Shown piece after piece: positions 5,946 to 20,821 of a stretch of DNA of 22,388 nt. A model generated the notes under the pieces. The model was not told the origin of the DNA and ran no database searches. It saw only the letters and a list, made by a program, of their open reading frames with translations. The stretch comes from Nitrospirota bacterium (lineage in GTDB: Bacteria; JACPQY01). Where the stretch lies: positions 310,001-332,388 of the forward strand of contig JACPAV010000003.1 in assembly GCA_016180645.1 (NCBI GenBank). The letters run 5' to 3'. Each line of letters begins with the position of its first letter. Positions within the stretch are counted from its first letter, which is position 1. Made by a program: the position numbers and the translations under genes.

Positions 5946-6710
5946 CTAGAACTTCAGCGTCTGACCCTGCCCCATGATGCTGAGCGTCGGAATCTGAAGA
6001 TCGTTCAATTCCCGCTCCATCTCGGGGAGGTTGGGGGACTTGATGTGGGTGATGAGGTGCTTCACGTCCGACCGGGCCAGTTTCTCCAACTCTTTCCCGG
6101 CCATGGAAGGGGTGAGATGACCGCTGATCCGCGCCAGCTCGGCCATCTTGTTCGGGAATGAAGATTCAAGGATGACGGCTTTCAAGTGTTTCTCCTTGGC
6201 GAGTCCCGTCCAAACGTTGGTCAGCGGGCCCGTGTCGCCTGAGAAGAAGAATGAAGATTTCCCGTTCGAAACCAGAAACCCCACGGCCGCGATGGTGTGA
6301 TTCACCTCGAACGCGGTCACGGTCAGATCGCCGAACTTGGTGGGTTCCTCCACGTGGATGGGCTTCAACATCATGATGGGCTTCTCGATGCTCGGGATGA
6401 TGGTGAAATCGGGCCAGATGGCGTTGTTCAGCAGGTGCGCCTTGAGTTCATGGAGCACTTGCGGAATCGAAACGACCACCAGCGGCTTGGTCCTTCGGCC
6501 GATCAGGTTGTCGGCCAAAAGCGACAGATCCCGAACGTGATCGAGGTGGGGGTGCGAGATGAACACGTAGTCCACGCCCATCTGCTGCTCCAGCGTGAGC
6601 ACGGAGGTCACCGTGCCGGCATCCACCAGCGCGGAGTTGTTCACCAGATAGCCCGTCAGCCGGTAGCCGGGAAGCTCCGAGCCGTAGCAGCCGAGGGCTT
6701 TGAGATCCAT
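5946..6710 (-). CDS. 3',5'-cyclic-nucleotide phosphodiesterase, class II / metallo-beta-lactamase fold
   Basis: Real start is probably ATG 6710 (MDLKALGCYGSELPG). Motifs LVDAG, SHPHLDH (HxHxDH), NNAIWPDF, VNH, FSGDTGP, ESSFPN, SGHLTP and THIK. Directly downstream of the cyclase. Confidence 0.88.
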   Translation of the reverse strand: MDLKALGCYGSELPGYRLTGYLVNNSALVDAGTVTSVLTLEQQMGVDYVFISHPHLDHVRDLSLLADNLIGRRTKPLVVVSIPQVLHELKAHLLNNAIWPDFTIIPSIEKPIMMLKPIHVEEPTKFGDLTVTAFEVNHTIAAVGFLVSNGKSSFFFSGDTGPLTNVWTGLAKEKHLKAVILESSFPNKMAELARISGHLTPSMAGKELEKLARSDVKHLITHIKSPNLPEMERELNDLQIPTLSIMGQGQTLKF

Positions 6711-6721
6711 TCGAGGTTCGC

Positions 6722-8959
6722 CTATTTCGTGGTGAACACGTAAACGCCGTCCCAGGGGTCCGGCGGCGGCTGTTTCATGAGATCCTGGGATCTCTGGATA
6801 TAGATGGTGGACGGCTTGTCCTCCGGCCGGTCTTTCAGGACCCGCTCGAAGGACTTGATCGCGTCTTCGAACTGTTGGGCGCGGTAGAGACCCAGAGCCT
6901 TCTGGAACTCCCCGATGAAGTCGAAGGTATGGGTCGCCCCGTCCTTCTTGCTCAGGAGTTCGTAGATCCGAATGGGTTCTTTTTTGCCTTTCACCCTCAC
7001 GAAGTCGAGTTCCCGGTAGATGTAGTTGTCCTTCACCTGGGCGTAGGTCGATTCGCTGATGATGATCTGCGTGCCGTAATTCTTGTTCGTTCCTTCCAGG
7101 CGGGACCCGAGGTTCACGGCGTCGCCCATCACGGTGTAATTGAACCGCGTGTTCGATCCCATGTTTCCCACGCTCATCGGTCCCGTGTTTAACCCGATTC
7201 CGATGTTGATCTTCGGCAGGCCTTCCTTCTCCCACTGCGCCTGGAGTTCCCGGAGCTTCTGCAACATTTCGAGTGCGGTATCGCAGGCCTTCGCCGCATG
7301 GTCGGGATAGTGGATCGGAGCTCCGTAGAAGGCCATGATCGCGTCGCCCATGTATTTGTCCAGCGTGCCGGAATGTTTGAACAGGATGTCCGTCATGGGC
7401 GAGAGGTAGACGTTCAAGAGGTGCACGAGGGCCTCTGGAGTGAGTTTCTCCGAGATGCTGGTGAAATCCCGCACGTCTGAGAACAGCACCGTCATCTCCA
7501 AGCGTTCGCCGCCCAATTTCAGCATGTCCGGGTTCTCGGTCACTTTGCTGACGACCGCCGGATCGAGATACGATTGGAAGGCGCCCTTGATCTTCTTCTT
7601 TTCCTTCTCTTCGCTGACGTACCGGTAGACGGTGACGCCGAGGAAGACGATGACCATGCAGCCCATCGGGTAGGCCATGGAGATCCAGTAGCCTTGGCGG
7701 ATGAAGACCTGGACGATGGCGATGTAGTAGGCCGTCAGAAGCGGAATCAGGATGACGAAGCCCCAGACGGCGGAGAGTCGCACGAGGATATTTCCGAGCA
7801 CGAGGCCCGCGAGGACGATCACGCCCATGTCCATCAGGCGGTACCAGTGCGGCCGTTTCAAGTAATCGTTGTGAAGAATGTTGGAGATGACGTTGAGGTG
7901 GACCTCCGTGCCGGGGAATTTTTCGTCCAAGGGCGTCACGCGCAAGTCGTACAGACCGGTGGCCGTGGCGCCGACGATGACGGCCTTGCCTTCCACGTCC
8001 TCGCGCTTGACGCGATCCGCCACGATATCGGCGATGCTCATGTGATCGAAACTCTCCGCTTTGCCGACGTAGTTGATGAGCATGCGGCCCTCGGGGTCGA
8101 CGGGGATCGTGTGCAGGGGCTCCAGCGTCCCTTTCTTATAGAGGTGCACCTTCGCCAGACCCGACTCGTCCATCTCAAGTCCGAGCGTGGCATCCATGAG
8201 CACACCCGCCATCTGGAGTCCCAGCGAGGGATAGTATTCGTCCCCCGCCCGCGCCACGAGGGTGTACCAGCGGAGCTTCCCGTCCTCAATGTCGTTGTCC
8301 ATGTTGAAATGGCCGAAGAAGCGTGAGTTCTGAGAAAACAACTTGAGATTGGGAACCACGCCCTCGTAGGCGATTCCGGACTGTTTGGGTGAGCCTTGTT
8401 TGACGAGAAGCGTGGGGATGCGCGAGGCGGCCATCATGTCGAGGCTTTCTTTGAACTCGGCGGGATCCTGCGGAGATTCGGCGTCGAAGAAGTAGCCGAG
8501 CACGACGTTTTCGTATTTCTTCAGAGTGTCGGCCAGGATCACGTCGCGGTCCGCTTCCTTGGCTTTTCGGATCAGGAAGGGATCGGAAAAATACGGAACG
8601 AATTCATCGAGGATTTTGCTGGACGAATCGCGCTCGGCCCAGATCATGTCGAGCCCGATGACTTTTGCCCCGAGGGCTTCGAGTTTGTCGATCACCTGGG
8701 CCATCTTGTTCCGCGGCCAGGGGAAACGACCGATCTCTTTCAAGCTCTGTTCGTCGATAGCTGCGAGAACGGCCTCGTGGCCCACATCCACTTTCTTGCG
8801 CTGCTTGAGCCGCGTGTCGTAGGTGAGGAGTTCGAGCCTTTCGAAGAGGCCGACCTGGAAGATGTAAGCGATCAAGATCCCCAGGGTGATCATGAAGCTG
8901 ACCCTGAAACCGGTGAGCTTCAAGACGTGCGCTTTGGCGAAATCAACCAATTTCTTCAT
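6722..8959 (-). CDS. CHASE2-domain membrane adenylate cyclase (class III) with C-terminal TPR-like tail
   Basis: N-terminal TM, CHASE2 (IDEQSL...GRFPWPR, IVGATA.GLYDLRVTP, PGTEVH) and 3 TMs. Catalytic domain FSDVRDFT, DKYMGDAIM (ATP-specifying Lys), NYTVMGDAVNLGSRLE and VKGK. Confidence 0.93.
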   Translation of the reverse strand: MKKLVDFAKAHVLKLTGFRVSFMITLGILIAYIFQVGLFERLELLTYDTRLKQRKKVDVGHEAVLAAIDEQSLKEIGRFPWPRNKMAQVIDKLEALGAKVIGLDMIWAERDSSSKILDEFVPYFSDPFLIRKAKEADRDVILADTLKKYENVVLGYFFDAESPQDPAEFKESLDMMAASRIPTLLVKQGSPKQSGIAYEGVVPNLKLFSQNSRFFGHFNMDNDIEDGKLRWYTLVARAGDEYYPSLGLQMAGVLMDATLGLEMDESGLAKVHLYKKGTLEPLHTIPVDPEGRMLINYVGKAESFDHMSIADIVADRVKREDVEGKAVIVGATATGLYDLRVTPLDEKFPGTEVHLNVISNILHNDYLKRPHWYRLMDMGVIVLAGLVLGNILVRLSAVWGFVILIPLLTAYYIAIVQVFIRQGYWISMAYPMGCMVIVFLGVTVYRYVSEEKEKKKIKGAFQSYLDPAVVSKVTENPDMLKLGGERLEMTVLFSDVRDFTSISEKLTPEALVHLLNVYLSPMTDILFKHSGTLDKYMGDAIMAFYGAPIHYPDHAAKACDTALEMLQKLRELQAQWEKEGLPKINIGIGLNTGPMSVGNMGSNTRFNYTVMGDAVNLGSRLEGTNKNYGTQIIISESTYAQVKDNYIYRELDFVRVKGKKEPIRIYELLSKKDGATHTFDFIGEFQKALGLYRAQQFEDAIKSFERVLKDRPEDKPSTIYIQRSQDLMKQPPPDPWDGVYVFTTK

Positions 8960-9149: not shown

Positions 9150-9932
9150 CTACTCGTGGCACTCCAGGCAGGGTGGCTCTTCCATGTCGATCAGCTCGCC
9201 GTGTTCGGTCTTGTTCGAGTGGCACTGGCGGCAGACCATGCCCTTGGGGAGATGCTCGTCCACCTTGTGGGTCTCCTTGTACTCCAGATGGCAGCCGCCG
9301 CAATCGCTCCGAACGAGATGTTCGTACAAGGGAGGCTTGATCGAATCCTCGGGATGGCAGGTTTCGCACGTTTCTTTGGTCTGCTCGTGGCAGCCGTTGC
9401 CCATGCAGGCGGTCATCTTCGGGCGGTTCGTCGGCTCGGCCTCATGATCGTGCGTGATGGTGTAGTGACAGTCGGGACAGCGCATCTCCTCGAGCTTGAT
9501 GTGGAGCTCGTGGTTCATTTTGATGTGCTTCTCGTTGTGCTCGTATTTGAGTTCTTTCTTGTTCGGGATGTCCTTGTGACAGCGGAGACAGTTGTCGTTC
9601 AGCCGCTCCGTTCGCGAGGCGAAGACCATGTGGTCGTCCGCATCAGCCATCTGCCAGGGAAATTTCGGCAGGTGCATGGCGTGGCACTCGACGCAACGCA
9701 CTTCCGAGTACGGTGGATGGACCTTGGACGTACCGCCGACAAAAGAGGTTTCTCCCGTGGAGTGGCAGCTCAGGCAGTTGTGCGGGCTGCGCGCGTATTT
9801 CGCGAGCCCCCAACCGGAGGTGAGCGCGAAAACGGCTCCCGCCCCCAGGAAGATCGCGAGGTTCCTGATCGTCAGGGGAGGAATGTGGAGCGTCTTCACG
9901 CGACCGATCAGCGATTGGATTCGACGGCCCAT
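9150..9932 (-). CDS. Membrane-anchored multiheme cytochrome c (8 CXXCH + 1 CX4CH), NapC/NirT-like N-terminus plus c3/c7-like C-terminal part
   Basis: Likely start ATG 9932 (MGRRIQS). N-terminal TM, then CLSCH, CVECH, CLRCH, CPDCH, CMGNGCH, CETCH, CGGCH, CRQCH and CLECH. Confidence 0.85.
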   Translation of the reverse strand: MGRRIQSLIGRVKTLHIPPLTIRNLAIFLGAGAVFALTSGWGLAKYARSPHNCLSCHSTGETSFVGGTSKVHPPYSEVRCVECHAMHLPKFPWQMADADDHMVFASRTERLNDNCLRCHKDIPNKKELKYEHNEKHIKMNHELHIKLEEMRCPDCHYTITHDHEAEPTNRPKMTACMGNGCHEQTKETCETCHPEDSIKPPLYEHLVRSDCGGCHLEYKETHKVDEHLPKGMVCRQCHSNKTEHGELIDMEEPPCLECHE

Positions 9933-9937
9933 GGCGC

Positions 9938-12298
9938 TCACTCGAAGAAGAACAGGTATTTTTCCACGAAGCCCGGCTTCGGCCTGGAAGCCACTTTCAG
10001 GACGGATACCACGGTGTCCTGCCAGGCGACGCCCCCTCCGGCGCGGTCGGTTTTGGCCGCCACTAGCGGCTTCACGTGAACTCCATTCCCTTCCTTCTCC
10101 CACCACACCAGCTTCGTTTCGGGGTTCGCGCTCTTGAACGCCTTGGCCCGTGCCACGTGGCCATACCCCCAGTGGCCGCAATTGTCCGATATGGCGATGA
10201 CGCGGGGGTGGATGCCCTGGACCAGGAGGACTTCGCCCCGGACGATGCCCGTCCGGGAAATCACCTCCAGCACGTCGCCGCTCTCCAGACCCAACTCCTC
10301 GCCGGTGGACCGGTTGATGAGGATCGGGTTGCGGTGAACGATCTCGGAGAGCTTGAGCGAGCCCGCGGTGTGGTAATGGGTGTGGACGTTCCACTGGAAG
10401 TTTGTCAGGGCGAACTGGCTCGGTCGCATCTCCGCATACTCCGGCACCGGCTCATAGGTCGGCATGGGATTGAGTCCCATTTTCTCCAGCCGCGCGGAGT
10501 GGATTTCGAATTTTCCTGAGGGCGTGTCGAAGCCGCCTTTCCGATATTTCTGGTAGTCCGGTTTGGCGTCGGGATCTCTCCAGAATCCCTTCTTCACCAG
10601 GTATTCCAGGCCGCCCGCCTTTTCCAATCCGGCGATTCCGGCCACCTGCGCGTAGAGGTAGTCCTCGGGATCGAAGTAGAAATATTTCGTCATGGGGCCA
10701 TCCAGCAGCGTCGCCAACTCGATCAGGATATCCATGACCGGCTTGGACTCGCCCAGCGGTTTGACCACCGGCTGCCGAAGGCTGACGAACGGCACCATTT
10801 CCATGGACGGCGGCGATTCCAGTTCCCATCGTTCGAGGTAGGTGGACGCAGGGAGAACGACGTCGGCCAACGCCGCGGTCTCCGTCATGTGGCTGTCGAT
10901 GGCCACATGGAAGGGGATCTTGATTTCGTTCTTGAAAAGGGCATCCACGGCTTCCGTGTGGGGCGCCTCGTACAGGGGGTTTCCCATGTAGGTGAACCAC
11001 ACGCCGATTTGCGGTTTCTCCATCTCCGCCAGCTTTTCGAAGAGACCATAGGTCGATTCCCGGCCCGTCTGGGAATTAAGGAAGGCGCTCGCTGCGGCGG
11101 GTTTCGGCGGAACGGGCTCGGGATCGCGGAAGGCGTAGCTCCGCGGGAGGCAGAAGCCGCCGAGGGCGTCGATGCGGCCGGTGACCGCGTTGAGGAGCAT
11201 GATGCAACGCTCATTCTGCACGCCGTTGACGTGCTTGCTGACGCCTCCGGAAGAGATCGTGGTGGCGTACCGGCTCCGGGCGAATTCGAGGGCGATGCGG
11301 ACGATGTCCGCCGCTGCGACGCCGCTTTCCTGCTCGGCCCGCTCGGGGGTGTACGGCGCGAGGTGCTTCCGGAGCCGGTCCGGCGCCACGTTGGTCCAGT
11401 TTCTCAGAAAGGCTTCATCGTGGAGGTTCTCCCGCATGATGACGTGGGCCATCGCCAGCGCGATCAATCCGTCCGTGCCGGGGAACGGCGCAAACCATTC
11501 ATCGCTCCGGCCGGCGGTCTGGCTGCATCGCACGTCGAAGCTGACGAGCTTGGCGCCGTAATGCACCTGGGAATGCCGGATCTTCGTCTGCCTTCCTTCG
11601 GTCAGCCGCTGGACGAAACTCGTGCGCAGATAGTGCGCTTCGTACGGATTGGCGCCGAAGTTGAGAATGTACTCGGTGTTGACCACGTCGGACACCTCAA
11701 CAGGCGCTCCCCATGTGGCCTCCTGCGCCAGACGCTTGTTCTGGTTCGTCAGACCCACGTGAACGAGCGCGTTCGGGGAGCCGAAGGCACGGGCAAATCG
11801 TTCGGTGAACTTCTGCGTCGTAATGTCCCGGCTGCTGTACAAGAAAAACTTTTCGGGTGTCTTCGCCTCCCACAGAGCGCGGAGTTTCCCGCCGACCAGT
11901 TTGTGGGCCTCGTCCCAGGAGATCTGTTTCCATTGGCCCTCGCCCCGCTTTCCGGTGCGGACCATCGGATGAAGGATCCGTTCAGGATCGTAGAGGATGT
12001 CTTTGGCCGCGTGACCCTTGGCGCACATGCGGCCGCGCGAGTTGGGGTGATTGGGATTTCCTCCGACCTTGGCCAGCGCTCCGTCCGTCGCATACCCGAT
12101 GATCCCGCACCGCGCATAGCAGTTCAGGCACGTGCTGTGGATGTTCCGGTGCGCGCGGCGCGTCGTCCGCGTGACGCTCCTCCCCCCCATCTGGAGCTCC
12201 ATGGGGAGGGTGGCCTTGGGAAGCAGCGTTCCGGCGGCCGCGATGCCCGCCGCCGCGCCCGTAGTCATGAGGAACTGCCTTCGGTGGAGTTTTCTCAT
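9938..12298 (-). CDS. Mo/W-bisPGD oxidoreductase catalytic subunit, Psr/Ttr/Arr-like group, Tat-exported
   Basis: Start ATG 12298 with Tat signal HRRQFL. FS0 motif CLNCYARC...CAKG. Further motifs YDPERILHPMVRTGKRGEGQWKQISWDEA, PGTDG, ETAALADVVLPASTYLER, TPSGKFE and GHWGYG. Confidence 0.92.
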   Translation of the reverse strand: MRKLHRRQFLMTTGAAAGIAAAGTLLPKATLPMELQMGGRSVTRTTRRAHRNIHSTCLNCYARCGIIGYATDGALAKVGGNPNHPNSRGRMCAKGHAAKDILYDPERILHPMVRTGKRGEGQWKQISWDEAHKLVGGKLRALWEAKTPEKFFLYSSRDITTQKFTERFARAFGSPNALVHVGLTNQNKRLAQEATWGAPVEVSDVVNTEYILNFGANPYEAHYLRTSFVQRLTEGRQTKIRHSQVHYGAKLVSFDVRCSQTAGRSDEWFAPFPGTDGLIALAMAHVIMRENLHDEAFLRNWTNVAPDRLRKHLAPYTPERAEQESGVAAADIVRIALEFARSRYATTISSGGVSKHVNGVQNERCIMLLNAVTGRIDALGGFCLPRSYAFRDPEPVPPKPAAASAFLNSQTGRESTYGLFEKLAEMEKPQIGVWFTYMGNPLYEAPHTEAVDALFKNEIKIPFHVAIDSHMTETAALADVVLPASTYLERWELESPPSMEMVPFVSLRQPVVKPLGESKPVMDILIELATLLDGPMTKYFYFDPEDYLYAQVAGIAGLEKAGGLEYLVKKGFWRDPDAKPDYQKYRKGGFDTPSGKFEIHSARLEKMGLNPMPTYEPVPEYAEMRPSQFALTNFQWNVHTHYHTAGSLKLSEIVHRNPILINRSTGEELGLESGDVLEVISRTGIVRGEVLLVQGIHPRVIAISDNCGHWGYGHVARAKAFKSANPETKLVWWEKEGNGVHVKPLVAAKTDRAGGGVAWQDTVVSVLKVASRPKPGFVEKYLFFFE

Positions 12299-12299
12299 G

Positions 12300-13214
12300 T
12301 CAGTGCAGGGGTATGCTTTGACCGGCATAGACCACCGTGAGTCGCATCGCGTAAATTCCGAGGAGGACGAGAACCGAAGCCACATTCGCGGAGGCGAGCG
12401 AACCCCGAAACGGCTTCACAAAGATCAGAATCAGGGGAATCAGACTCCCAAGGAACACCTCCACGCCCAGGAACAGGAACGTGAACTTCCCGTGGAGGAG
12501 GAGCTGAGCCACGTAGTACTCCTCCGCCTTGGAGGTCAGGAGGACCAGGATGTCGTTGGAAATCAGGAAGAGGTCCACGATGATCACCGCACCGAGGAAT
12601 TTCACCAGATTCAGGATCAGCCCCTTCTCGACCTCCGTTTCCTTGGGATCGCGTTTCTTGGCCGCCCAGCGGTTGTAGATCGAGGCAGCCACAACCATGA
12701 GCGCGAAGCCGGAGACCATGGCGGAGACGAGGAAGAGCGTCGGCATGAGCGCCGTGCTCCACAGGGGCCGGCCTTTTCCAAGGGCGAGAATGAATCCCGT
12801 GTAGCCGTGCACACACACTGCGAGCGGGATGCCAATGATGCCGATGAGCTTGGCCGCCTTCTGCCTCCCCGTGAAGAGCGCCCACGCGTAAAGCGTTGCA
12901 TTGAGTGGATAGGAAGTCAGGAGGAAAGTGCCGTAGGTGATGGGGGACGTCATATGGAGATAGACGAAGAGGTACCAGAACCGCGTCGGCTGCTCGAGAT
13001 CGATGACAAGGAAAAGAGGGGCGATGACGAGGGCCAACGGCGCCATGATGGAGCCGATCTTTGCGAGAGCCTTGTACTCGGTGCGGCCGCCGAGGACGGC
13101 GATAACGGAGATGACGAACGATCCGGCGGAGATGCCCGTGAGGTAGAAGTAGGTGGCGATTTCCTTCCCCAGGGGGATGACGTGCGGGGTGTTGAAAAGC
13201 GTTTGTGCTTCCAC
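12300..13214 (-). CDS. NrfD/PsrC family quinone-interacting membrane subunit
   Basis: Likely GTG start 13214 behind GGAGGAGG. Motifs IATYFYLTGISAGSF, DLEQP.RF, TSPITYG and YTGFIL...RPLW; about 8 hydrophobic segments. Confidence 0.9.
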   Translation of the reverse strand: MEAQTLFNTPHVIPLGKEIATYFYLTGISAGSFVISVIAVLGGRTEYKALAKIGSIMAPLALVIAPLFLVIDLEQPTRFWYLFVYLHMTSPITYGTFLLTSYPLNATLYAWALFTGRQKAAKLIGIIGIPLAVCVHGYTGFILALGKGRPLWSTALMPTLFLVSAMVSGFALMVVAASIYNRWAAKKRDPKETEVEKGLILNLVKFLGAVIIVDLFLISNDILVLLTSKAEEYYVAQLLLHGKFTFLFLGVEVFLGSLIPLILIFVKPFRGSLASANVASVLVLLGIYAMRLTVVYAGQSIPLH

Positions 13215-13215
13215 C

Positions 13216-13923
13216 CTATTCCTCCTCCCAGCCTTTGAGAGGATCGGCGGCGTCCAGATCAAGGCCGATGTAAAACACCCGGGGGTTCGTACCCATTTCC
13301 GGTTTGAGCACGCTGACCGGTTCCGTGGCCAGGATTTGGGAGATCTCGCTGTTTGGATCGTTCATGTCCCCGAAGATCCGGGCTCGACCGATGCACGTTT
13401 CCACACAGGCCGGCACAAGCCCCGCATCCACCCGATGGTCGCAGAACGTGCATTTCTGCACGTATTTCTTGAGGGGATTCACGTATCGCACGTCGTATGG
13501 GCACGAGGCCATGCAGTACTTGCAGCCGATGCACCGGTGCTGGTCGATCATCACGATCCCATCCTCCCGTTGCCAGGTCGCTTCAACGGGGCAGTTGGCC
13601 AGACAGATCGGTTTCTCGCAGTTATTGCAAAGGATGGGGACGAACGAGCGGGAGACATGCGGGTACTTCCCTTTTTCGACGACCTTCACCCATGTGCGGA
13701 ATACGCCTGGCGGGACGTCGTTCTCCTCCTTGCAGGCCACCGTGCAGGACTGGCAGCCGATGCAGCGGCGGAGGTCGATGACCATCGCGTAGCGCTTCCT
13801 GCCTGCCTTTCCCGCGGCCGGACCTTTGGCGCCCTCGTGACCGACCCGGTGGGCGAGCCCTTCGCGGCCCGCAGACGCAGCCGTTCCGGGCAGTCCGCCA
13901 GCCTCTTTCTCCTTCGCAGCCAT
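13216..13923 (-). CDS. 4x[4Fe-4S] electron-transfer subunit (TtrB/PsrB/NrfC family)
   Basis: RYAMVIDLRRCIGCQSCTVAC, CNNCEKPICLANCP, CIGCKYCMASCPY and KCTFC...PACVETC...ARIFGD. Confidence 0.93.
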   Translation of the reverse strand: MAAKEKEAGGLPGTAASAGREGLAHRVGHEGAKGPAAGKAGRKRYAMVIDLRRCIGCQSCTVACKEENDVPPGVFRTWVKVVEKGKYPHVSRSFVPILCNNCEKPICLANCPVEATWQREDGIVMIDQHRCIGCKYCMASCPYDVRYVNPLKKYVQKCTFCDHRVDAGLVPACVETCIGRARIFGDMNDPNSEISQILATEPVSVLKPEMGTNPRVFYIGLDLDAADPLKGWEEE

Positions 13924-13975: not shown

Positions 13976-14413
13976 CTATTTCTCGTCTTCTTCTTCTTCT
14001 TCCTCGGCTGCGCCGGCGCCCTCTTCCTCGGGCGTGACAGCGACCTTGGTCTTCCGAGCTGCCAGCCACTCGGTGAGGGTCTTCAGCTCTTCGTCCGTGC
14101 CCTTGAATTTCTTCTTGTGGCCGACCTTCTTGGATTTATCGAAATGCGACTCGATCTTCACTTCCTTCTTCAGCCATTTGGTGAAGAACGCGGCGTCTTG
14201 TTCCGCTCCGACGTTGGAGAGATCCGGCCCCTTCTTGGCCTTGCCGGTTTTCTTGCTGATTTTTTTCTCGATGGCTTCCGCCTTGACCAAGTGGCAGTCG
14301 TTACACTTCTTCTCCAGGAAGATGTCTTTTCCTGAAGCGGCGAACGTCGCCGAAGGCAGCGCCGCCGCCAGGAACGGCGCCACGACGAACAGCGAAACAA
14401 GCCTGCGCATCAT
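13976..14413 (-). CDS. Periplasmic monoheme cytochrome c, Lys-rich with acidic tail
   Basis: Signal peptide, GKDIF...CNDCH, GPDLSNVG. AGGAGG RBS. No Met in the mature chain. Confidence 0.85.
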   Translation of the reverse strand: MMRRLVSLFVVAPFLAAALPSATFAASGKDIFLEKKCNDCHLVKAEAIEKKISKKTGKAKKGPDLSNVGAEQDAAFFTKWLKKEVKIESHFDKSKKVGHKKKFKGTDEELKTLTEWLAARKTKVAVTPEEEGAGAAEEEEEEDEK

Positions 14414-14769: not shown

Positions 14770-15627
14770 TCAGTCCTTCGGGTCCTCGAGATACTTCCGT
14801 TTGCGATGGATGACGAAGGCCCCGATCAAGAGGAACACGGTGAAGAATCCGCCTGCGATTTGGCGACGCTTCAGGACATCCTCCTGCTCTCCAATCCGGG
14901 TCGCCAGGATCCGCGCATCTTTCGTGACGGTCTCCGCAATCTCGATGACCCGGTCGAGGTCCAGGATGTGGCTGAGGTGATGGAACACGTTCCGCTGGGC
15001 GAAATGGGCCTGCTGGAGGGATCGCACGTCCCACCCTTCCGACCTCAACACGGCGATCCGATTTTCGAGTTCGACGAGCCGCGCCTCCGCATCGGTCATG
15101 GCCACCTTGATCCGCTTCGAGCGCTCATACTTGTGGCACTCGGAGCAGGTGTCTTCGTTGATCAGATCCAGGTTGGCCTTCTTGATCCTGTGCGCCTCGT
15201 GGCAGGTGATACAGACCGGACGCTTCTCCTTCTTCGTCAGCCAGTGTTTGCTTTTGACGTAGTTCTCCTGGATGGCCACGTGGCATTTGCCGCATACCGC
15301 GGGCACATCGTCGTCCGCCGGCGCGCCGATGAACTCCGACTCCTCCTCATCGTGCGCGTCCTCTTCCTCGGAGGCGGCCGGATTGCCCCCGTGGCAATCG
15401 TTGCACGCAATGGAGTTTTCGTGGTGGATGCTTTCGCGCCACTCCTTGGGCGGAATCGCAAGATCCTCGTTTTCCTCCTCCTGCTCGAGGTGGCATTTGA
15501 CGCACTGGTTTTCGGGCGGAATATCCTCCGCCCACGCGGTCGCAACGAACGCCGCCGGGAGAAGGATCAGCGCCCCCAAGGCCCTTCGGAGCTGAAAGCT
15601 GATCGCTGACGGCCGATCGCTCCTCAT
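14770..15627 (-). CDS. Pentaheme cytochrome c with coiled coil and C-terminal TM anchor (cytochrome c subunit of the Rieske/cyt b complex; CbcX-like)
   Basis: Signal peptide ending AWA. CVKCH, CNDCH, CGKCH, CITCH and CSECH. C-terminal TM followed by RKRK. ATGA overlap with cyt b. Confidence 0.87.
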   Translation of the reverse strand: MRSDRPSAISFQLRRALGALILLPAAFVATAWAEDIPPENQCVKCHLEQEEENEDLAIPPKEWRESIHHENSIACNDCHGGNPAASEEEDAHDEEESEFIGAPADDDVPAVCGKCHVAIQENYVKSKHWLTKKEKRPVCITCHEAHRIKKANLDLINEDTCSECHKYERSKRIKVAMTDAEARLVELENRIAVLRSEGWDVRSLQQAHFAQRNVFHHLSHILDLDRVIEIAETVTKDARILATRIGEQEDVLKRRQIAGGFFTVFLLIGAFVIHRKRKYLEDPKD

Positions 15628-16679
15628 GACAGATGCCCCCAGACCGTCAGGCCGACGAACGAAGCCAGCCCGGCGAAAACGGCAGCGAGGAACAGCGGAC
15701 GCTTCAGCGGCCGCCTTTCCGGATTACGGTCGATAAACGGAAGGAGCAGGATCGCAAGTCCGGCCAGTCCCTGCGCGGCCACTCCCAGGAACTCATTGGG
15801 AATGATTTTGAGCATCTGGTAGTTCGCCAGGAAGTACCATTCCGGCTTGATGTGGGGCGGCGTAAATAGGGGATCGGCCGGCTCCATGGCATCCGGCGGG
15901 AAGCTGATCTGCGGGGTGAAGAAAACGCCGAAGAAGAGCAACGCAAGAAAGAAGTAGACCACGCGGAGGTCTTCCAGCGCGAAATGAGGGAAGAACGGAA
16001 CCTTCTTCACCTGGTCCTTGGGAATGCCCGGCGGGGCGGAAATCCCGGCGCGCCGCATAAAGAAGAGGTGGGCGGCCACGATCATCGCGAAGAGCGGCGG
16101 GAGAACCGAAACGTGGAGCGCGTAGAAACGGCCGAGAGTCATCTGATCGACGCGGTCCCCCCCGCGGATCCATCGGACGATATCGTCGCCGATCACGGGC
16201 ACCGATCCGGCGGAGTTCGTCGCTACTGTCGTCGCCCAGTACGAAAGCTGACTCCACGGCAGGAGGTAGCCCGAGAGGCAGGCCATGAGGCCCAATCCGA
16301 ACAGGACCACGCCGCTGATCCACTGGATCTCGCGCGGTTTCTTGTAGGAGCCCATGATGAGGGTGCTCAGCATGTGGAGCATGAGGACGAGGATGAAGAG
16401 ATTCGCGGCGATCGCGTGCGTTCTCCGGATGAGCCATCCGAACGAGATCTTGCCGGTGATATTCATGACGCTCTCGAACGCGAGCGACGTGTGGGGGATG
16501 TAGTACGCGAGCAGGAGAATCCCGGTGGCGAACTGAATGCCCAGCACGGTGAGGAGGACGGCCCCCATGGAGTACCAGACGCTGAGGTTCGCCGGAACCA
16601 TGTAGCCCGTGAGATGAGTCTCGATGAGTTCCCGGTATTGAACGCGCTCTTCAAGCCAGTCGAGGATCTTTTTCACCAT
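15624..16679 (-). CDS. Cytochrome b/b6 (unsplit) of a Rieske/cyt b complex
   Basis: Start ATG 16679 (MVKKILDWLEER). GWLIRRTH...LH, GSYKKPREIQW.SG, GYLLPWSQLSYWA, RFYALH...AH and the Qo motif KPEWYF. Confidence 0.93.
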   Translation of the reverse strand: MVKKILDWLEERVQYRELIETHLTGYMVPANLSVWYSMGAVLLTVLGIQFATGILLLAYYIPHTSLAFESVMNITGKISFGWLIRRTHAIAANLFILVLMLHMLSTLIMGSYKKPREIQWISGVVLFGLGLMACLSGYLLPWSQLSYWATTVATNSAGSVPVIGDDIVRWIRGGDRVDQMTLGRFYALHVSVLPPLFAMIVAAHLFFMRRAGISAPPGIPKDQVKKVPFFPHFALEDLRVVYFFLALLFFGVFFTPQISFPPDAMEPADPLFTPPHIKPEWYFLANYQMLKIIPNEFLGVAAQGLAGLAILLLPFIDRNPERRPLKRPLFLAAVFAGLASFVGLTVWGHLS

Positions 16680-16683
16680 GACG

Positions 16684-17115
16684 TCACGCCTCGAACAACC
16701 GGACCGAGTCTTCCACGACTTCCACGCGGTAGCGTGTGAGGCCGCGGGGCGGCGGTCCGGAGATTCGGTTTCCGTTGCTGTCAAACTTTGCGGCGTGACA
16801 AGGACACAGGATCTTGCCTTCGGCCTTCTGCCAGCGGACGATGCAGCCGAGGTGGGGGCAGACGGCGCTGAAGCCCCTCCACTCGCCTCCGTGATGGACG
16901 ACGAGCGTCGGTTCGCCGAAGGCCAGTCCGGTTCGCGCCCCTTCCCGCACAACCTCCTCCGCCCGGATGGGTTCACCGTCCAGGTTGGTGAGGGTGTTGT
17001 CACCCTTCGCCGAGGGTTTGGGAAAGAAGTACGCGGCCACCGGAGCGACGAATGCAAGACCCGTGATCCAGCCCACGGCTTGAGTCAAGGTGTCGAAAAA
17101 CCCTCTTCGGGTCAT
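16684..17115 (-). CDS. Rieske [2Fe-2S] protein, Tat-anchored
   Basis: MTRRGFF Tat motif. CPHLGC and CPCH boxes. GPPPRGL. Confidence 0.93.
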   Translation of the reverse strand: MTRRGFFDTLTQAVGWITGLAFVAPVAAYFFPKPSAKGDNTLTNLDGEPIRAEEVVREGARTGLAFGEPTLVVHHGGEWRGFSAVCPHLGCIVRWQKAEGKILCPCHAAKFDSNGNRISGPPPRGLTRYRVEVVEDSVRLFEA

Positions 17116-17124
17116 ATTTCCTCC

Positions 17125-18354
17125 TTACCTGGGGGTTCGACGGCGGAAGGCCATCCAGCCCACAAACAGCATCAGCACAGCCGCCGCAGCCATCAAGATG
17201 GTTTTCCCCGGGAGCTGCTTTTTCGCCGGCACATGGAACTTGTCCCGCGCCATGGCGAATTGCATCGCGGAATGGTTCCCGGGGAGCTGCGGATGGAATT
17301 CGTAGGTCAGGACGGCCTCCACGGAGAAGGGGCCGGGCGGCACGGTTTCATTGAACTGAAAGGTCTCACGGCGGGTTTCCTGCGGGCGGACGCGATTGTC
17401 GCTGATCACCTTCACGGAATTGAGAAACATATCCGTGATGCTTTCGTTTGGAATTTCGGCGCCGGAACGATCCGCCAGAATTCGCCGATACACCAGATCC
17501 CGCGCGCCCAGAAGCCGGCCTTTCTCATCCACCAAGCGGGCGGTCAGGACCAACTTGCGCGCCGGGAGGCCCGTCGGTATGGCGTGTCCGGATTCGCTGT
17601 TGGTCACATAGACGATCGCTTCCAGTCCCTGACCTTTTCTTTCAGCGAGCACGGAGATTTTCGCGGCATTTCCGACCCGGATCTGGGAGTGCCCTCCCAT
17701 CACGGAATGCGAAGTGACGGTCTTGGTGCTGGGCGCCACATCGCGGTCGACGATGGTGAACCGGATGTCCTCCGGCATGTGGCAATTCTGGCATGCCGTG
17801 CCCGATCCGGGGTACGGGCCGGTGCTCCACTCTTCATAGGTATTCATGACGTGGAGGCCGTGGGCATTGATCACTTCGTGACAGCCGCCGCAAAACTCAC
17901 CCTTCTTGTGCAGAGGGGAAAAGGCGTTCTTGTGACCTTTCTCCGTAAGCTCGCTCGGCTGGAATGGACCCCACTTCGTATCTCCCGGCTGGACCTTGTA
18001 CCGTTGGAGGCCGGGCCCCATCGGCAGGAGATCCGTGACAGAGTGGCAGAAATCGCAGGTAACTCCCTCGCGTGCCACCGGATCCGAAAGTTTGTCGTCC
18101 CCGGTGATTTGGGTGATCGGGGCGTGGCAGGAGAGGCAGTAGCGTCGATCCTCCGGCCGGGTAACCGTGTCGAAGCTCGCGCGGAAGACCGGATCTTCGA
18201 GCGAGAGGGCGTGCATGGAGTCCTTCCATTCGGAATAGATCCCCGAATGGCATTCGCCGCATTTCTTGGCGCTCTCGAAGCGGTTGGCAGCCCACGCAGA
18301 CGACGAGGCCATTTCAGAAAGAAGCAGAGCGACAGGGAGGAAGGCGATTCTCAC
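17125..18354 (-). CDS. Pentaheme cytochrome c (c554-like N-terminal region) with beta-rich domain and C-terminal TM anchor
   Basis: GTG start and signal peptide. CGECH..IY.EW..S.H, CLSCH, GVTCDFCH, CGGCH and CQNCH. GHAIPTG motif. Terminal hydrophobic helix followed by RRR. Confidence 0.87.
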   Translation of the reverse strand: MRIAFLPVALLLSEMASSSAWAANRFESAKKCGECHSGIYSEWKDSMHALSLEDPVFRASFDTVTRPEDRRYCLSCHAPITQITGDDKLSDPVAREGVTCDFCHSVTDLLPMGPGLQRYKVQPGDTKWGPFQPSELTEKGHKNAFSPLHKKGEFCGGCHEVINAHGLHVMNTYEEWSTGPYPGSGTACQNCHMPEDIRFTIVDRDVAPSTKTVTSHSVMGGHSQIRVGNAAKISVLAERKGQGLEAIVYVTNSESGHAIPTGLPARKLVLTARLVDEKGRLLGARDLVYRRILADRSGAEIPNESITDMFLNSVKVISDNRVRPQETRRETFQFNETVPPGPFSVEAVLTYEFHPQLPGNHSAMQFAMARDKFHVPAKKQLPGKTILMAAAAVLMLFVGWMAFRRRTPR

Positions 18355-18366
18355 GCGACGAGCGGC

Positions 18367-18834
18367 TTAGTTGTTCGCGGCCCCTTGCTGCACCCAGGCT
18401 TGCACGATGGCGGCTTTGTCGGCGCCAAGGGCCGCTCCGCCGATGTGACCGTCGCCTCCCGTACCTTTCTTGATGAGCTTGCTGTCCGCCGGAGAATCGA
18501 CATTCACGAGGGCTTTGATCCCGGCGTAGTCGTTCGCAGCCACTCCGGTTACCTTGTATGAGCCGATGCCGGCCGCATGGCAATTGCAACTCGCTTGGAG
18601 CACCGGAAGAACGTCCTTGGAAAAGCTGTACTCCGTTCCGCCTGCTCCACCGCCCGCGCCGCCGCCGGTGTCGCCGGTCCCACCGCCTCCACCGCCGGAT
18701 ACGGCCCCGGCCTCTTCAGCGCGGCTGAAGGGGTCGCCGCACGAAGAGAGGGTGAGGAGTGAGGCGCAAGCCGTGAGCAGCAGGAAAGAAAACAGGATCG
18801 ATCGAAGACCTGGAAAATTGCCGCGCATAGCCAC
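18367..18834 (-). CDS. Lipoprotein cytochrome c-like protein with contracted CNCH motif
   Basis: Lipobox LSSC and Gly-rich linker. YSFSKDVLPVLQASCNCH...S.LI.K..G...H.GG...W...GA. Paralog of 20390-20821. Confidence 0.75.
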   Translation of the reverse strand: MAMRGNFPGLRSILFSFLLLTACASLLTLSSCGDPFSRAEEAGAVSGGGGGGTGDTGGGAGGGAGGTEYSFSKDVLPVLQASCNCHAAGIGSYKVTGVAANDYAGIKALVNVDSPADSKLIKKGTGGDGHIGGAALGADKAAIVQAWVQQGAANN

Positions 18835-18840
18835 CTCCGA

Positions 18841-19980
18841 CTAGAATTCGATGACCGCCGCGAGGCGGACCAGATCGTTGGGTTGCTCGTTCGCCGCTTC
18901 GAGGTTGACGAAATACTCGATTCCCGTCGACAGGATCTTGTAGTCCCACCACAGGCCGACGTTGTGGCTGACCATGTCCTTCTCGTCTTTGCGGTCCTTG
19001 TCGAAGTAGAACCCTTCGATGTTGTCGAGCGAGACGAAGCCGGTGCGATATCGACAGCGCAGATCCCATGGGAGCTTGTAGTCCACCTGGAGGTAATCGC
19101 CGAAGTGATAGTAGGAGGTGATGGTGGAGTCACCTTCGACTCGCTCACTGCCCCGCACATACGCCTTGATGAAACCCGCCTTGAGGGAGAGGTTGCTAAG
19201 CGGTCCCACGGGGAGGAATCCGTATGCCGCCGCGGCGTCCAAGCCCACCAGGAACAGGCCGCTGTCGCTGAAGTACTGGTTCCAATAGAACGATCCCCAC
19301 ACGCTGTATTTCCCGGCGCCCAGGCGCAACCGGTCTCCCGCCCCCGCTTGCCCGGAATTTTCCGTCGTCTTGCTGATATCCACCATCTCGTTCAGTTTCC
19401 CCTCGGGACCCGGCACGACGTAGAACTCGTTGTCGATTCGGAGGCCGGGCCTGTCGGTGATGGGGTACAGGAAAGACCCGCCGTAGGTGGTCCAAAGGAA
19501 GGGGACCAGTTTCTGATCGAACCCCGTGAGCCCGCCGTAGGCGCGGTGAAAGAGCGGATCGGCGCCGAACGGCATGAAGATCTTTCCGAACTTCAGCAGC
19601 CGGTTCTTTCCCAGTTTGACGCCCACTTCGAAGAACTTAAAATCGACGATTTCCGCGGAAAAAGAGAATGGCTCGTCCTTCTTCCTCCGGCTCAGGAAAA
19701 CGAAATGATGGTAATTCTTGAAGTAATCTTTGCCCTCTTCGGGGTTGCCCGTGAACTTCTCCTTCTCATAGGTGAGATCGAAGCGACCGTTGATCATGAA
19801 TCCGGAGAGCTGAATTCCCGGCGCCGGCTTCCCGCTTTCGGATTCCGATTCCTCGGCCGCCAGCACCCACATGGGCATCAGGACCACCATGAGCGCCGTC
19901 GCCAGGAACAATCCGAGCCAAACCAGGATTGAGCTGACCGCTGAATGCTGAGCGCTGACCGCTCCGCTCTCACTTTGCAT
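18841..19980 (-). CDS. Predicted outer-membrane beta-barrel (porin-like) protein
   Basis: Likely start ATG 19980, overlapping the upstream stop. Signal peptide and aromatic-rich alternating strands (INGRFDLTYE, LKFGKIFMPFG, DYLQVDYKL). C-terminal LVRLAAVIEF ends in Phe. No heme motifs. Confidence 0.72.
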   Translation of the reverse strand: MQSESGAVSAQHSAVSSILVWLGLFLATALMVVLMPMWVLAAEESESESGKPAPGIQLSGFMINGRFDLTYEKEKFTGNPEEGKDYFKNYHHFVFLSRRKKDEPFSFSAEIVDFKFFEVGVKLGKNRLLKFGKIFMPFGADPLFHRAYGGLTGFDQKLVPFLWTTYGGSFLYPITDRPGLRIDNEFYVVPGPEGKLNEMVDISKTTENSGQAGAGDRLRLGAGKYSVWGSFYWNQYFSDSGLFLVGLDAAAAYGFLPVGPLSNLSLKAGFIKAYVRGSERVEGDSTITSYYHFGDYLQVDYKLPWDLRCRYRTGFVSLDNIEGFYFDKDRKDEKDMVSHNVGLWWDYKILSTGIEYFVNLEAANEQPNDLVRLAAVIEF

Positions 19981-20320
19981 GGCACACCTCGCAATCGACC
20001 TCTTCATCCTCCGGGTAGAAGGCGACATCACCGTTGTGGCACGCGCCGCAGTACTTGCCGGCGTCTATGTCTTCATGCGTCATGCCCACCTTCTTCTGCA
20101 TCGAGAAGAGTGAGGCATGGCAAGCATAGCACTTGAACTCCTCCTGGTGCTTCCAGTGAGGAAACTTGGCGACCTCTTCGTCGGCTTCCTCGACGCGCGT
20201 CATCGTGATCCACGCGGGATTGGCCACGAGCAACTTCCCGCCCCCAAGAACGGCGCCCGCGACGATCCCAACGGACATCAGGAATAAAATCTTTCTTCGG
20301 TCATGGTCGGATTTCATCAT
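19970..20320 (-). CDS. c7-type triheme cytochrome c
   Basis: Start ATG 20320 or 20317 behind GGAGG. FPHWKH....CYACH..LF......GKYCGACHNG..AF......CEVCH is the c(7)-type triheme domain pattern. Confidence 0.88.
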   Translation of the reverse strand: MMKSDHDRRKILFLMSVGIVAGAVLGGGKLLVANPAWITMTRVEEADEEVAKFPHWKHQEEFKCYACHASLFSMQKKVGMTHEDIDAGKYCGACHNGDVAFYPEDEEVDCEVCHAK

Positions 20321-20389
20321 GCCTCCAAACTTAACCAAACGCGCTTCTTGCGATATGACGGAGGTCAATTTTAATCCCGGCGCCTCTCA

Positions 20390-20821
20390 TCAGTTCCCGC
20401 ACGCTCCCAGGGAGATCCACGCGCTTACGATCCGATATTCACCGGAAGATTCGGCCAGGATTGCGCCGCCTCCGTGGGACGTCTGACCGGAAGCCTTCAT
20501 GAGAAGGTAGCTCTCCGTCGGCTTCCCGGGAGTGACGAGTCCTTTTACCATGGAGTAGTCGCCCGTTGCATCCGTGGCCAAAACAAATGCAGTCGCCCCC
20601 CCCGGCAGGCCCGGAGCGTGGCAGCCGGCGCACCTCGACCGCAGCAGGGGGTACACTTCATTCGAGAAATTGCTCTCCTCCTGGCACGTCGGAGGGGGCG
20701 AGTCCTCCTCTGTGCTTCCTCGATCGGAGAGTCCGCAGCCTGGAATCGTGAGCAGTGAGCCGCAAGTCGCGAGCCGAAAGACTGCGAAAAGGAAAGTGCG
20801 CCTCGCGGTGTCGATTCCCAT
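20390..20821 (-). CDS. Monoheme lipoprotein cytochrome c
   Basis: RRTFL N-terminus and lipobox-like IPGC. FSNEVYPLLRSRCAGCH...ESYLLMKASG..SHGGG...WI..GA resembles planctomycete-type cytochrome c domains. Confidence 0.78.
   Translation of the reverse strand: MGIDTARRTFLFAVFRLATCGSLLTIPGCGLSDRGSTEEDSPPPTCQEESNFSNEVYPLLRSRCAGCHAPGLPGGATAFVLATDATGDYSMVKGLVTPGKPTESYLLMKASGQTSHGGGAILAESSGEYRIVSAWISLGACGN

Follow-up and report, generated by a model that had tools for sequence, protein, structure and literature searches.

A MopB-family protein without a molybdenum-ligating residue as the candidate large subunit of a widespread periplasm-facing membrane complex

The window analysed here is a stretch of 22,388 nucleotides from a Nitrospirota bacterium (GenBank assembly GCA_016180645.1, contig JACPAV010000003.1, positions 310,001 to 332,388). 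Its minus strand carries a gene for a MopB/PsrA-like protein in which a threonine, Thr184, occupies the position of the molybdenum (Mo)-ligating cysteine. The cysteine was found to be absent from a whole family of related proteins, in which the vacated position varies freely, the remaining cofactor apparatus is largely preserved, and a multihaem cytochrome c is encoded nearby at almost every locus. On the best reading, the gene supplies the large subunit of a membrane complex with four subunits, one that is widespread, apparently uncharacterised and would face the periplasm. We give about an even chance to the further proposal that this complex is a cytochrome c:quinone oxidoreductase resembling Qrc and alternative complex III (ACIII), in which the MopB subunit would turn over no substrate but keep its FS0 cluster and perhaps a pterin without a protein ligand.

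The residue at the molybdenum-ligand position

The following features of the gene bear on the argument.

9938..12298, minus strand: MopB/PsrA-like large subunit of 786 amino acids, predicted to be exported by the twin-arginine translocation (Tat) pathway, without a Cys, selenocysteine (Sec), Ser or Asp ligand (open reading frame and translation)
12209..12298, minus strand: twin-arginine signal, MRKLHRRQFL... (translation; R6 and R7 at least 90% conserved in alignment A1)
12023..12130, minus strand: FS0 [4Fe-4S] motif, C57-x2-C60-x3-C64...C92-A-K94-G (four Cys invariant in alignment A1)
11747..11749, minus strand: ACG codon of Thr184, aligned with the Mo-ligating Cys (sequence, phmmer and profile alignment)
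11735..11740, minus strand: N187-K188, just past the ligand loop, opening helix 186-196 of the structure model (DSSP)

The open reading frame (ORF) spans 9938-12385, with the ATG at 12298 as its likely start, and the N-terminus of the protein fits the family consensus MxxxxRRxFLK. Read on the minus strand between 11850 and 11650, the codons TTC GGC TCC CCG ... GGT CTG ACG AAC CAG AAC AAG give FGSPNALVHVGLTNQNK. The interval 11790-11710 encodes FGSPNALVHVGLTNQNKRLAQEATWG, with Thr specified by the ACG at 11749-11747, in frame with the ORF, and the ligand segment contains neither a Cys nor an in-frame TGA, as the original prediction had stated. In phmmer alignments against PDB sequences, Thr184 pairs with a Cys of Thermus PsrA (2vpw_A, 'vslCta', E = 1.9e-61) and with a Cys of Shewanella ArrA (6cz7_A, 'ssvCae', E = 2.1e-39), both of which we take to be the Mo ligands. 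Alignment to a profile of 84 Cys-bearing relatives (hmmalign) placed Thr184 in a column that is 100% Cys. The earlier assignment of Thr to the Mo-ligand position was thereby upheld.

A word-indexed search scored 8000 candidates and returned 3311 proteins at E ≤ 0.001, the best 120 of which shared 44-100% identity with the query and came from metagenome-assembled genomes (MAGs) of many phyla. In a MAFFT alignment of 120 rows, composed of the query and 119 of these best 120 matches, the ligand column was occupied by Gly (59 rows), Ser (22), Glu (12), Thr (four, the query included), Tyr, His and Asn (four each), Ile (three) and others; Phe, Leu, Lys and Arg also occur there in other subclades. 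Cys was found in none of the 120 rows. The conservation check proposed with the original prediction thus spoke against both a private mutation and a read error, and showed that Thr is not conserved either. An exhaustive representative search gave 15027 proteins at E ≤ 0.001; among the best 150 of these 15027 matches, Cys-bearing relatives start at about 45% identity and below, and usually read HTS[IV]CESSKK.

The original prediction had named another Cys, Asp or Ser at the Mo site as a possible refutation. No new conserved Cys, Asp or His was detected in the family as a replacement ligand, and the specificity-determining positions between the family and all Cys-bearing relatives included only N187 near the site. 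N187 is present in 116 of the 120 MAFFT rows and K188 in 102, at positions where the Cys-bearing sister clade has S/K. In the structure model, N187 lies in the opening turn of helix 186-196, where the sister clade has Ser, which suggests that it acts as an N-cap and has no catalytic role.

Phylogenetic analysis (IQ-TREE, 56 rows, rooted with a Cys-bearing outgroup) placed all 33 Cys-less rows in one clade, with a support of 97 in the Shimodaira-Hasegawa-like approximate likelihood ratio test, and the Cys-bearing rows basal to it. A preliminary topology, in which a Cys-bearing clade was nested among Cys-less lineages (FastTree, midpoint root), was dropped on this result, and with it the argument for cofactor retention that such nesting would have offered. 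The Cys-less family was found in MAGs labelled Nitrospirota, Nitrospinota, Acidobacteriota, Armatimonadota, Chloroflexota, Planctomycetota (Scalindua, Brocadiia), Methylomirabilota, Thermodesulfobacteriota, Bacillota, Actinomycetota and Bacteroidota. Its members are annotated at source only as 'molybdopterin-dependent oxidoreductase', 'thiosulfate/polysulfide reductase chain A' or 'anaerobic selenocysteine-containing dehydrogenase', names that could mislead genome-based studies into assuming that sulfur, arsenic or selenium is respired.

The Cys-bearing sister clade (loci L064-L092) comprises proteins of 800-960 amino acids that carry HTS[IV]CESSKK and are encoded in the order iron-sulfur (FeS) protein, NrfD, MopB; the labels of its MAGs include Thiobacillus, Thiohalomonadaceae and Thiodiazotropha. 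The clade matches no NCBIfam equivalog (PhsA scores of 327-425 bits against a cut-off of 694), and appears to be an unnamed family of Cys-ligated enzymes.

A conserved gene module and its multihaem cytochrome

MopB is encoded together with three further subunits of the proposed complex.

9150..9941, minus strand: membrane-anchored multihaem cytochrome c, with eight CxxCH and one Cx4CH, Pfam c3, c7 and paired-CXXCH matches, and one hydrophobic N-terminal segment
12300..13262, minus strand: NrfD/PsrC-like membrane subunit, predicted to interact with quinone, of 320 amino acids with about eight hydrophobic segments (PF03916, 150 bits)
13216..13923, minus strand: PsrB/TtrB-like ferredoxin subunit whose 16 Cys fall into four groups (Fer4_11, 91 bits)

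The 16 Cys of the ferredoxin predict four [4Fe-4S] sites. Its NCBIfam scores were 256.4 bits for TtrB (cut-off 416), 209 for DsrO (cut-off 200) and 116 for QrcC (cut-off 400). The best NCBIfam matches of the NrfD-like subunit were NrfD, DsrP and TtrC, all below cut-off, and QrcD scored just 29 bits. The frame of the cytochrome was taken to open with a GTG at 9941 that shares bases with the TGA stop of MopB (GTGA); an alternative ATG lies nine bases downstream. The overlap is compatible with translational coupling of the two genes.

Synteny was compared by tblastn with the window proteins across 80 loci carrying relatives of 36-75% identity, and FeS-NrfD-MopB was found to be a constant core. 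A cytochrome was scored where an ORF with at least three CxxCH motifs began no more than 1.5 kb past MopB; five of the 80 loci were dropped at contig ends. By this measure, a cytochrome lies downstream of MopB in 47 Cys-less loci, with five scored as having none, whereas only one Cys-bearing locus has it and 22 do not. Two of the five negatives (L024 and L052) in fact carry a cytochrome directly after the MopB stop, two (L046 and L047) carry it upstream of the ferredoxin instead, and one (L033) offered just 742 bp of room, so that a cytochrome is present somewhere in the module in 51 of the 52 scorable Cys-less loci. The sole Cys-bearing locus with a cytochrome, L079, sits in a small clade that reads C, H, R and R at the ligand column. 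Apparent fusions of MopB with the cytochrome in L024, L026 and L052 were ruled out by a stop codon between the two genes.

The partner cytochromes carry 5 to 20 CxxCH motifs, of which about six form a conserved haem core, and an N-terminal hydrophobic segment that would serve as an anchor. Every cytochrome-bearing member of the family detected was encoded in a MAG. Recurrent neighbours of the family loci are further cytochromes, cytochrome b and regulators. A predicted complex of MopB (residues 45-786) with the cytochrome (residues 48-263) gave a score of 0.02 (mark 0.32), which speaks neither for nor against binding. A literature search returned no description of a FeS-NrfD-MopB-cytochrome module; supplements were outside its scope, and Duarte 2021 (BBA 148416) may catalogue it.

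Cofactor apparatus and proposed function

MopB has the domain set of its superfamily, with Pfam scores above cut-off for PF00384 (135 bits), PF04879 (42.5) and PF01568 (33.4), and falls below every NCBIfam equivalog cut-off tested. The best sequence model was PhsA (339.9 bits, cut-off 694); scores of other models were 171.5 for QrcB (cut-off 440; Cys-bearing relatives score alike, at 148-172), 164.6 for ArrA (cut-off 1600), 116.1 for TtrA (cut-off 1750) and 20 for arsenite_ox_L (cut-off 359). An AlphaFold2 model built from a 35-row family alignment (mean predicted local distance difference test score 87, predicted template modelling score 0.88) shows the full four-domain fold of ArrA and PsrA, and its best Foldseek matches were ArrA (6cz7_A, E = 6.2e-52) and PsrA (2vpw_A, E = 8.8e-49).

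As a control, 14 QrcB proteins, 13 of them above the NCBIfam cut-off, were collected from 101 genomes searched; QrcB has been reported to be devoid of redox cofactors (PMC6303296, PMC13059093; these articles and those cited below are drawn on in excerpt). Conservation was compared over the 73 columns that reach 80% or more in the 84 Cys-bearing relatives. Of these reference columns, 65 stay at 80% or more in the 173 rows of the Cys-less family (mean 0.93), whereas 39 do so in QrcB (mean 0.73), and the ligand Cys is the only one that the Cys-less family has wholly lost. The family retains C-A-K/R-G after FS0, F-D-V-R, P-G-T-D, A-D-x-x-L-P...E and N-V-H-T, which presumably contact the pterin or guanosine. 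QrcB instead reads P-L-G, has Glu for both Asp (PGTE) and lacks N-V-H-T, so that the Lys after FS0, DxR, PGTD and NVHT, all kept in the Cys-less family, are all lost in QrcB. Across the family, conservation reaches 97-100% for the general cofactor-fold motifs, for FS0 and for the Lys that follows it; the FS0 Cys stand at 98-99% across the 173 rows, and position 94 is Lys in 76% and Arg in 21%. The earlier claim that the Tat signal, FS0 cysteines, Lys and cofactor-binding motifs are intact and that the gene is not decaying was confirmed by the translation and the family alignments.

Within the QrcB set, most proteins above the NCBIfam cut-off (L104-L116) keep the FS0 Cys (C57 in 12 of 14, C60 in 13 of 14 and C92 in 13 of 14), and only L103, the member closest to the model, has a degenerate FS0 motif. 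This stands in contrast to the description of QrcB as cofactor-free in the excerpted literature.

The Cys-less family has 191 columns conserved at 85% or more, compared with 143 in the 38-row Cys-bearing sister clade. Eight of these 143 columns (R74, R125, G156, H180, C184, D484, R643 and K648) have a top-residue frequency of no more than 50% in the family, and R157 drops from 100% in the sister clade to 58%. By phmmer alignment, G156-R157, H180 and C184 fall on the R-G-R-Y, His and Cys of ArrA, which we take to be active-site residues; opposite RGRY the query itself has SSRD. Because columns conserved in the sister clade became variable, selection is taken to have been released at the ligand and several neighbouring positions, the rest of the protein being more conserved than in the sister clade.

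The Ttr, Psr, Phs and Arr reductases, all of CISM type (complex iron-sulfur molybdoenzymes), share the fold, Tat export and FS0 with the window protein, and supply its closest models (PhsA for MopB, TtrB for the ferredoxin). The B-C-A gene order of the window is also that of ttrBCA. Unlike these enzymes, the window protein has no Cys ligand, scores below the cut-off of all models and belongs to a family with an obligatory cytochrome subunit; the RGRY, His and Arg positions of the ArrA type are relaxed in the Cys-less family. A closer parallel is offered by QrcABCD, the cytochrome c3:menaquinone oxidoreductase of sulfate reducers, which likewise combines an anchored multihaem cytochrome, a Tat-type ligand-less MopB, a four-cluster ferredoxin and an NrfD-family subunit, and which faces the periplasm, as the window module would judging from its genes (PMC6303296, PMC13059093). 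QrcB, however, forms a clade separate from the Cys-less family on the tree, QrcD has 10 helices (PMC13059093) compared with the approximately eight hydrophobic segments of the window subunit, which at 320 amino acids is the shorter of the two, QrcC is listed with a [3Fe-4S] cluster (PMC8076601 Table 1) where the window ferredoxin is predicted to have four [4Fe-4S] sites, and the FeS-NrfD-MopB-cytochrome gene order differs from that of Qrc. The second parallel is ACIII (ActABCDEF), a quinol:cytochrome c oxidoreductase in which a MopB-like module that lacks a Mo cofactor is likewise joined by Fe-S clusters, an NrfD-like subunit for quinol and a multihaem cytochrome with a membrane anchor (PMC8076601, PMC10100899). 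In ActB the MopB-like and Fe-S parts are fused, whereas the window has separate genes, and no equivalents of ActD, ActE or ActF and no further NrfD-like genes were found within the module. Both QrcB and ActB are described in the excerpts as MopB homologues that lack a Mo cofactor and have penta- or hexahaem cytochromes as partners (PMC6303296, PMC13059093, PMC8076601 Table 1), and the MopB subunits of QrcABCD and ACIII as non-catalytic (PMC6303296, PMC13059093). The genome of the window itself encodes an ActB-like fused MopB-ferredoxin (L118, C32:132987-134945; QrcB 315 and QrcC 219 bits) and a separate QrcB-like protein (L119, C58:3847-5895; 280 bits); the module is therefore not simply the ACIII or Qrc of this organism.

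From the observed sequence, synteny and conservation, we infer that a complex forms, in which direction electrons flow, that catalysis was lost and which cofactors are held, as follows. The family would have descended from molybdoenzymes of the Ttr/Psr/Arr type. A single loss of the Mo-ligating Cys would have occurred at the clade's base, where several presumed active-site residues would also have been freed to vary and a multihaem cytochrome recruited. The complex would then work as a cytochrome c:quinone or quinol:cytochrome c oxidoreductase, like QrcABCD and ACIII, passing electrons between the haems and the quinone site by way of the Fe-S clusters. Its MopB subunit would have given up the turnover of small substrates but would still carry the Tat signal that co-exports the ferredoxin, and with FS0 kept and an apparently intact pocket for bis(pyranopterin guanine dinucleotide) (bisPGD), it may hold a pterin without a protein ligand. 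If so, the complex would represent a third, independently derived link between quinone and cytochrome c on a molybdoenzyme chassis, besides Qrc and ACIII, with more of the ancestral cofactor apparatus kept than in either, and the transition from molybdoenzyme to electron-transfer scaffold, a long-standing question, would become directly testable.

Several observations weigh against this proposal. FS0, the Lys and the pocket motifs are almost fully retained, which is unexpected for a pure scaffold and fits a working cofactor, and N187 and K188 are conserved beside the former ligand. The link between Cys loss and the cytochrome is essentially one evolutionary event, since the Cys-less rows form a single clade and a tree-based count gave only two independent contrasts, one of them without a difference. 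True molybdoenzymes with cytochrome subunits exist, such as perchlorate reductase with PcrC. The presence of Pfam domains had to be rejected as a proxy for cofactor binding, QrcB matching PF00384 and PF01568 in 14 of 14 proteins and the Cys-less family in 35 of 35. Genome content, examined for a genome that has the Cys-less protein as its sole MopB and yet keeps MobA, speaks neither for nor against the proposal: all 47 genomes searched have at least two PF00384 matches each, so that in none is the Cys-less protein the only MopB; in the five genomes poorest in PF00384, the other matches include Sec-type formate-dehydrogenase-like genes. Matches to MobA were all below cut-off, and one genome had none.

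It is possible, though we hold it only tentatively, that the family binds a molybdenum or tungsten (Mo/W)-bisPGD or a metal-free pterin without a protein ligand, either as a non-catalytic relay that passes electrons between FS0 and a multihaem cytochrome docked to the protein or as a centre of catalysis, again free of a ligand, whose chemistry may be new. In both cases, the family would represent a living intermediate, with CISM enzymes that catalyse on one side and QrcB, ActB and Nqo3, scaffolds without a cofactor, on the other. Taken as a genuine enzyme, the protein would act on a periplasmic substrate with a Mo/W-bisPGD that lacks an amino-acid ligand, and with the cytochrome and NrfD/FeS subunits as redox partners, a less likely but serious alternative. 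The excerpted precedents are AioA and IdrA, listed as having 'No amino acid ligand' to Mo (PMC10100899 Table 1), and an active pterin centre would make the family only the second lineage of ligand-free Mo/W-bisPGD enzymes. The retained motifs, the complete ArrA/PsrA-like fold, the conserved N187-K188 pair and the greater number of conserved columns than in the sister clade all agree with an enzyme. In AioA and IdrA, FS0 is a [3Fe-4S] cluster and the small subunit is a Rieske protein (PMC10100899), whereas FS0 of the window protein has all four Cys, and the Rieske gene of the window adjoins cytochrome b. Against catalysis stand the metal-side residue, which varies among G, S, T, E, Y, F, H, N, K, R, L and I where a first-shell residue is normally fixed within an enzyme family, the relaxation of the columns aligned with the ArrA active site, and the start of a helix at N187, which would make this residue an N-cap. 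Neighbours of the family loci, judged by CxxCH counts and by eye with no family search, also included no recurrent gene that points to a substrate. The missing ligand and the kept motifs behind the ligand-free centre of the original prediction are upheld, and such a centre may exist; its catalytic version is weakened by the relaxed active-site columns and the cytochrome association. The new substrate chemistry suggested with it has lost ground in the face of the relaxed G156, R157, H180, R643, K648 and D484, the near-universal cytochrome and the non-catalytic MopB subunits of Qrc and ACIII.

Ligation of Mo/W by the hydroxyl of Thr184, which would be a new O-ligated centre confined to the query and its nearest relatives, is very improbable. 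Thr aligns exactly with the ligand Cys, the closest relative (L013, 75% identity) also has Thr, and Ser ligation is known in enzymes of the DmsA/TorA type. Thr is found, however, in just four of the 120 rows, the commonest residue, Gly, cannot ligate a metal, and the query's own subclade is made up of 18 Gly, five Glu, three Ser, two Thr, one Ala and one Asn; with the ligand column this variable, the O-ligated centre first proposed finds no support. Sequencing error, private mutation and incipient gene decay all have next to no likelihood as causes of the missing Cys, given a protein identical to the query in a public collection (P0003), the absence of Cys from all 120 rows, and an intact and highly conserved reading frame.

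Neighbouring genes in the window

The remaining genes upstream of the module, all on the same strand, are as follows.

13976..14413, minus strand: monohaem cytochrome c (PF00034, CNDCH motif)
14770..15627, minus strand: multihaem cytochrome c with a C-terminal hydrophobic segment (weak DmsE-family match, 38 bits)
15624..16703, minus strand: cytochrome b (PF00033, 186 bits; PF00032, 76 bits)
16684..17115, minus strand: Rieske [2Fe-2S] protein (PF00355, 46.5 bits)
17125..18354, minus strand: multihaem cytochrome c, weakly ExtKL-like (65.7 bits, cut-off 250)
18367-18834, minus strand: lipoprotein-like small ORF with one CxxCH
18841-20031, minus strand: ORF of 396 amino acids with an N-terminal hydrophobic segment, ending ...AAVIEF (no Pfam match)
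19970-20368, minus strand: ORF of 132 amino acids with three CxxCH
20390-20821, minus strand: lipoprotein-like small ORF with one CxxCH

The 396-residue ORF, with its C-terminal Phe, may by eye encode a porin-like outer-membrane barrel, and the ORFs at 18367-20821 together with the multihaem cytochromes look like a porin-cytochrome conduit for extracellular electron transfer. The setting of the module in one minus-strand cluster with Rieske and cytochrome b proteins, multihaem cytochromes and a porin-like protein points to a role in periplasmic or extracellular electron transfer.

Directly downstream of the module, the minus strand encodes a CHASE2-domain adenylate/guanylate cyclase (6722-8959) and a class-II cyclic AMP phosphodiesterase/metallo-beta-lactamase-fold protein (5946-7235), a possible cyclic-nucleotide signalling pair adjoining the respiratory cluster. 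Elsewhere in the same genome, six large MopB paralogues (L002-L004, L008, L009 and L012), with open frames of about 990-1180 amino acids, are all located on contig C28.

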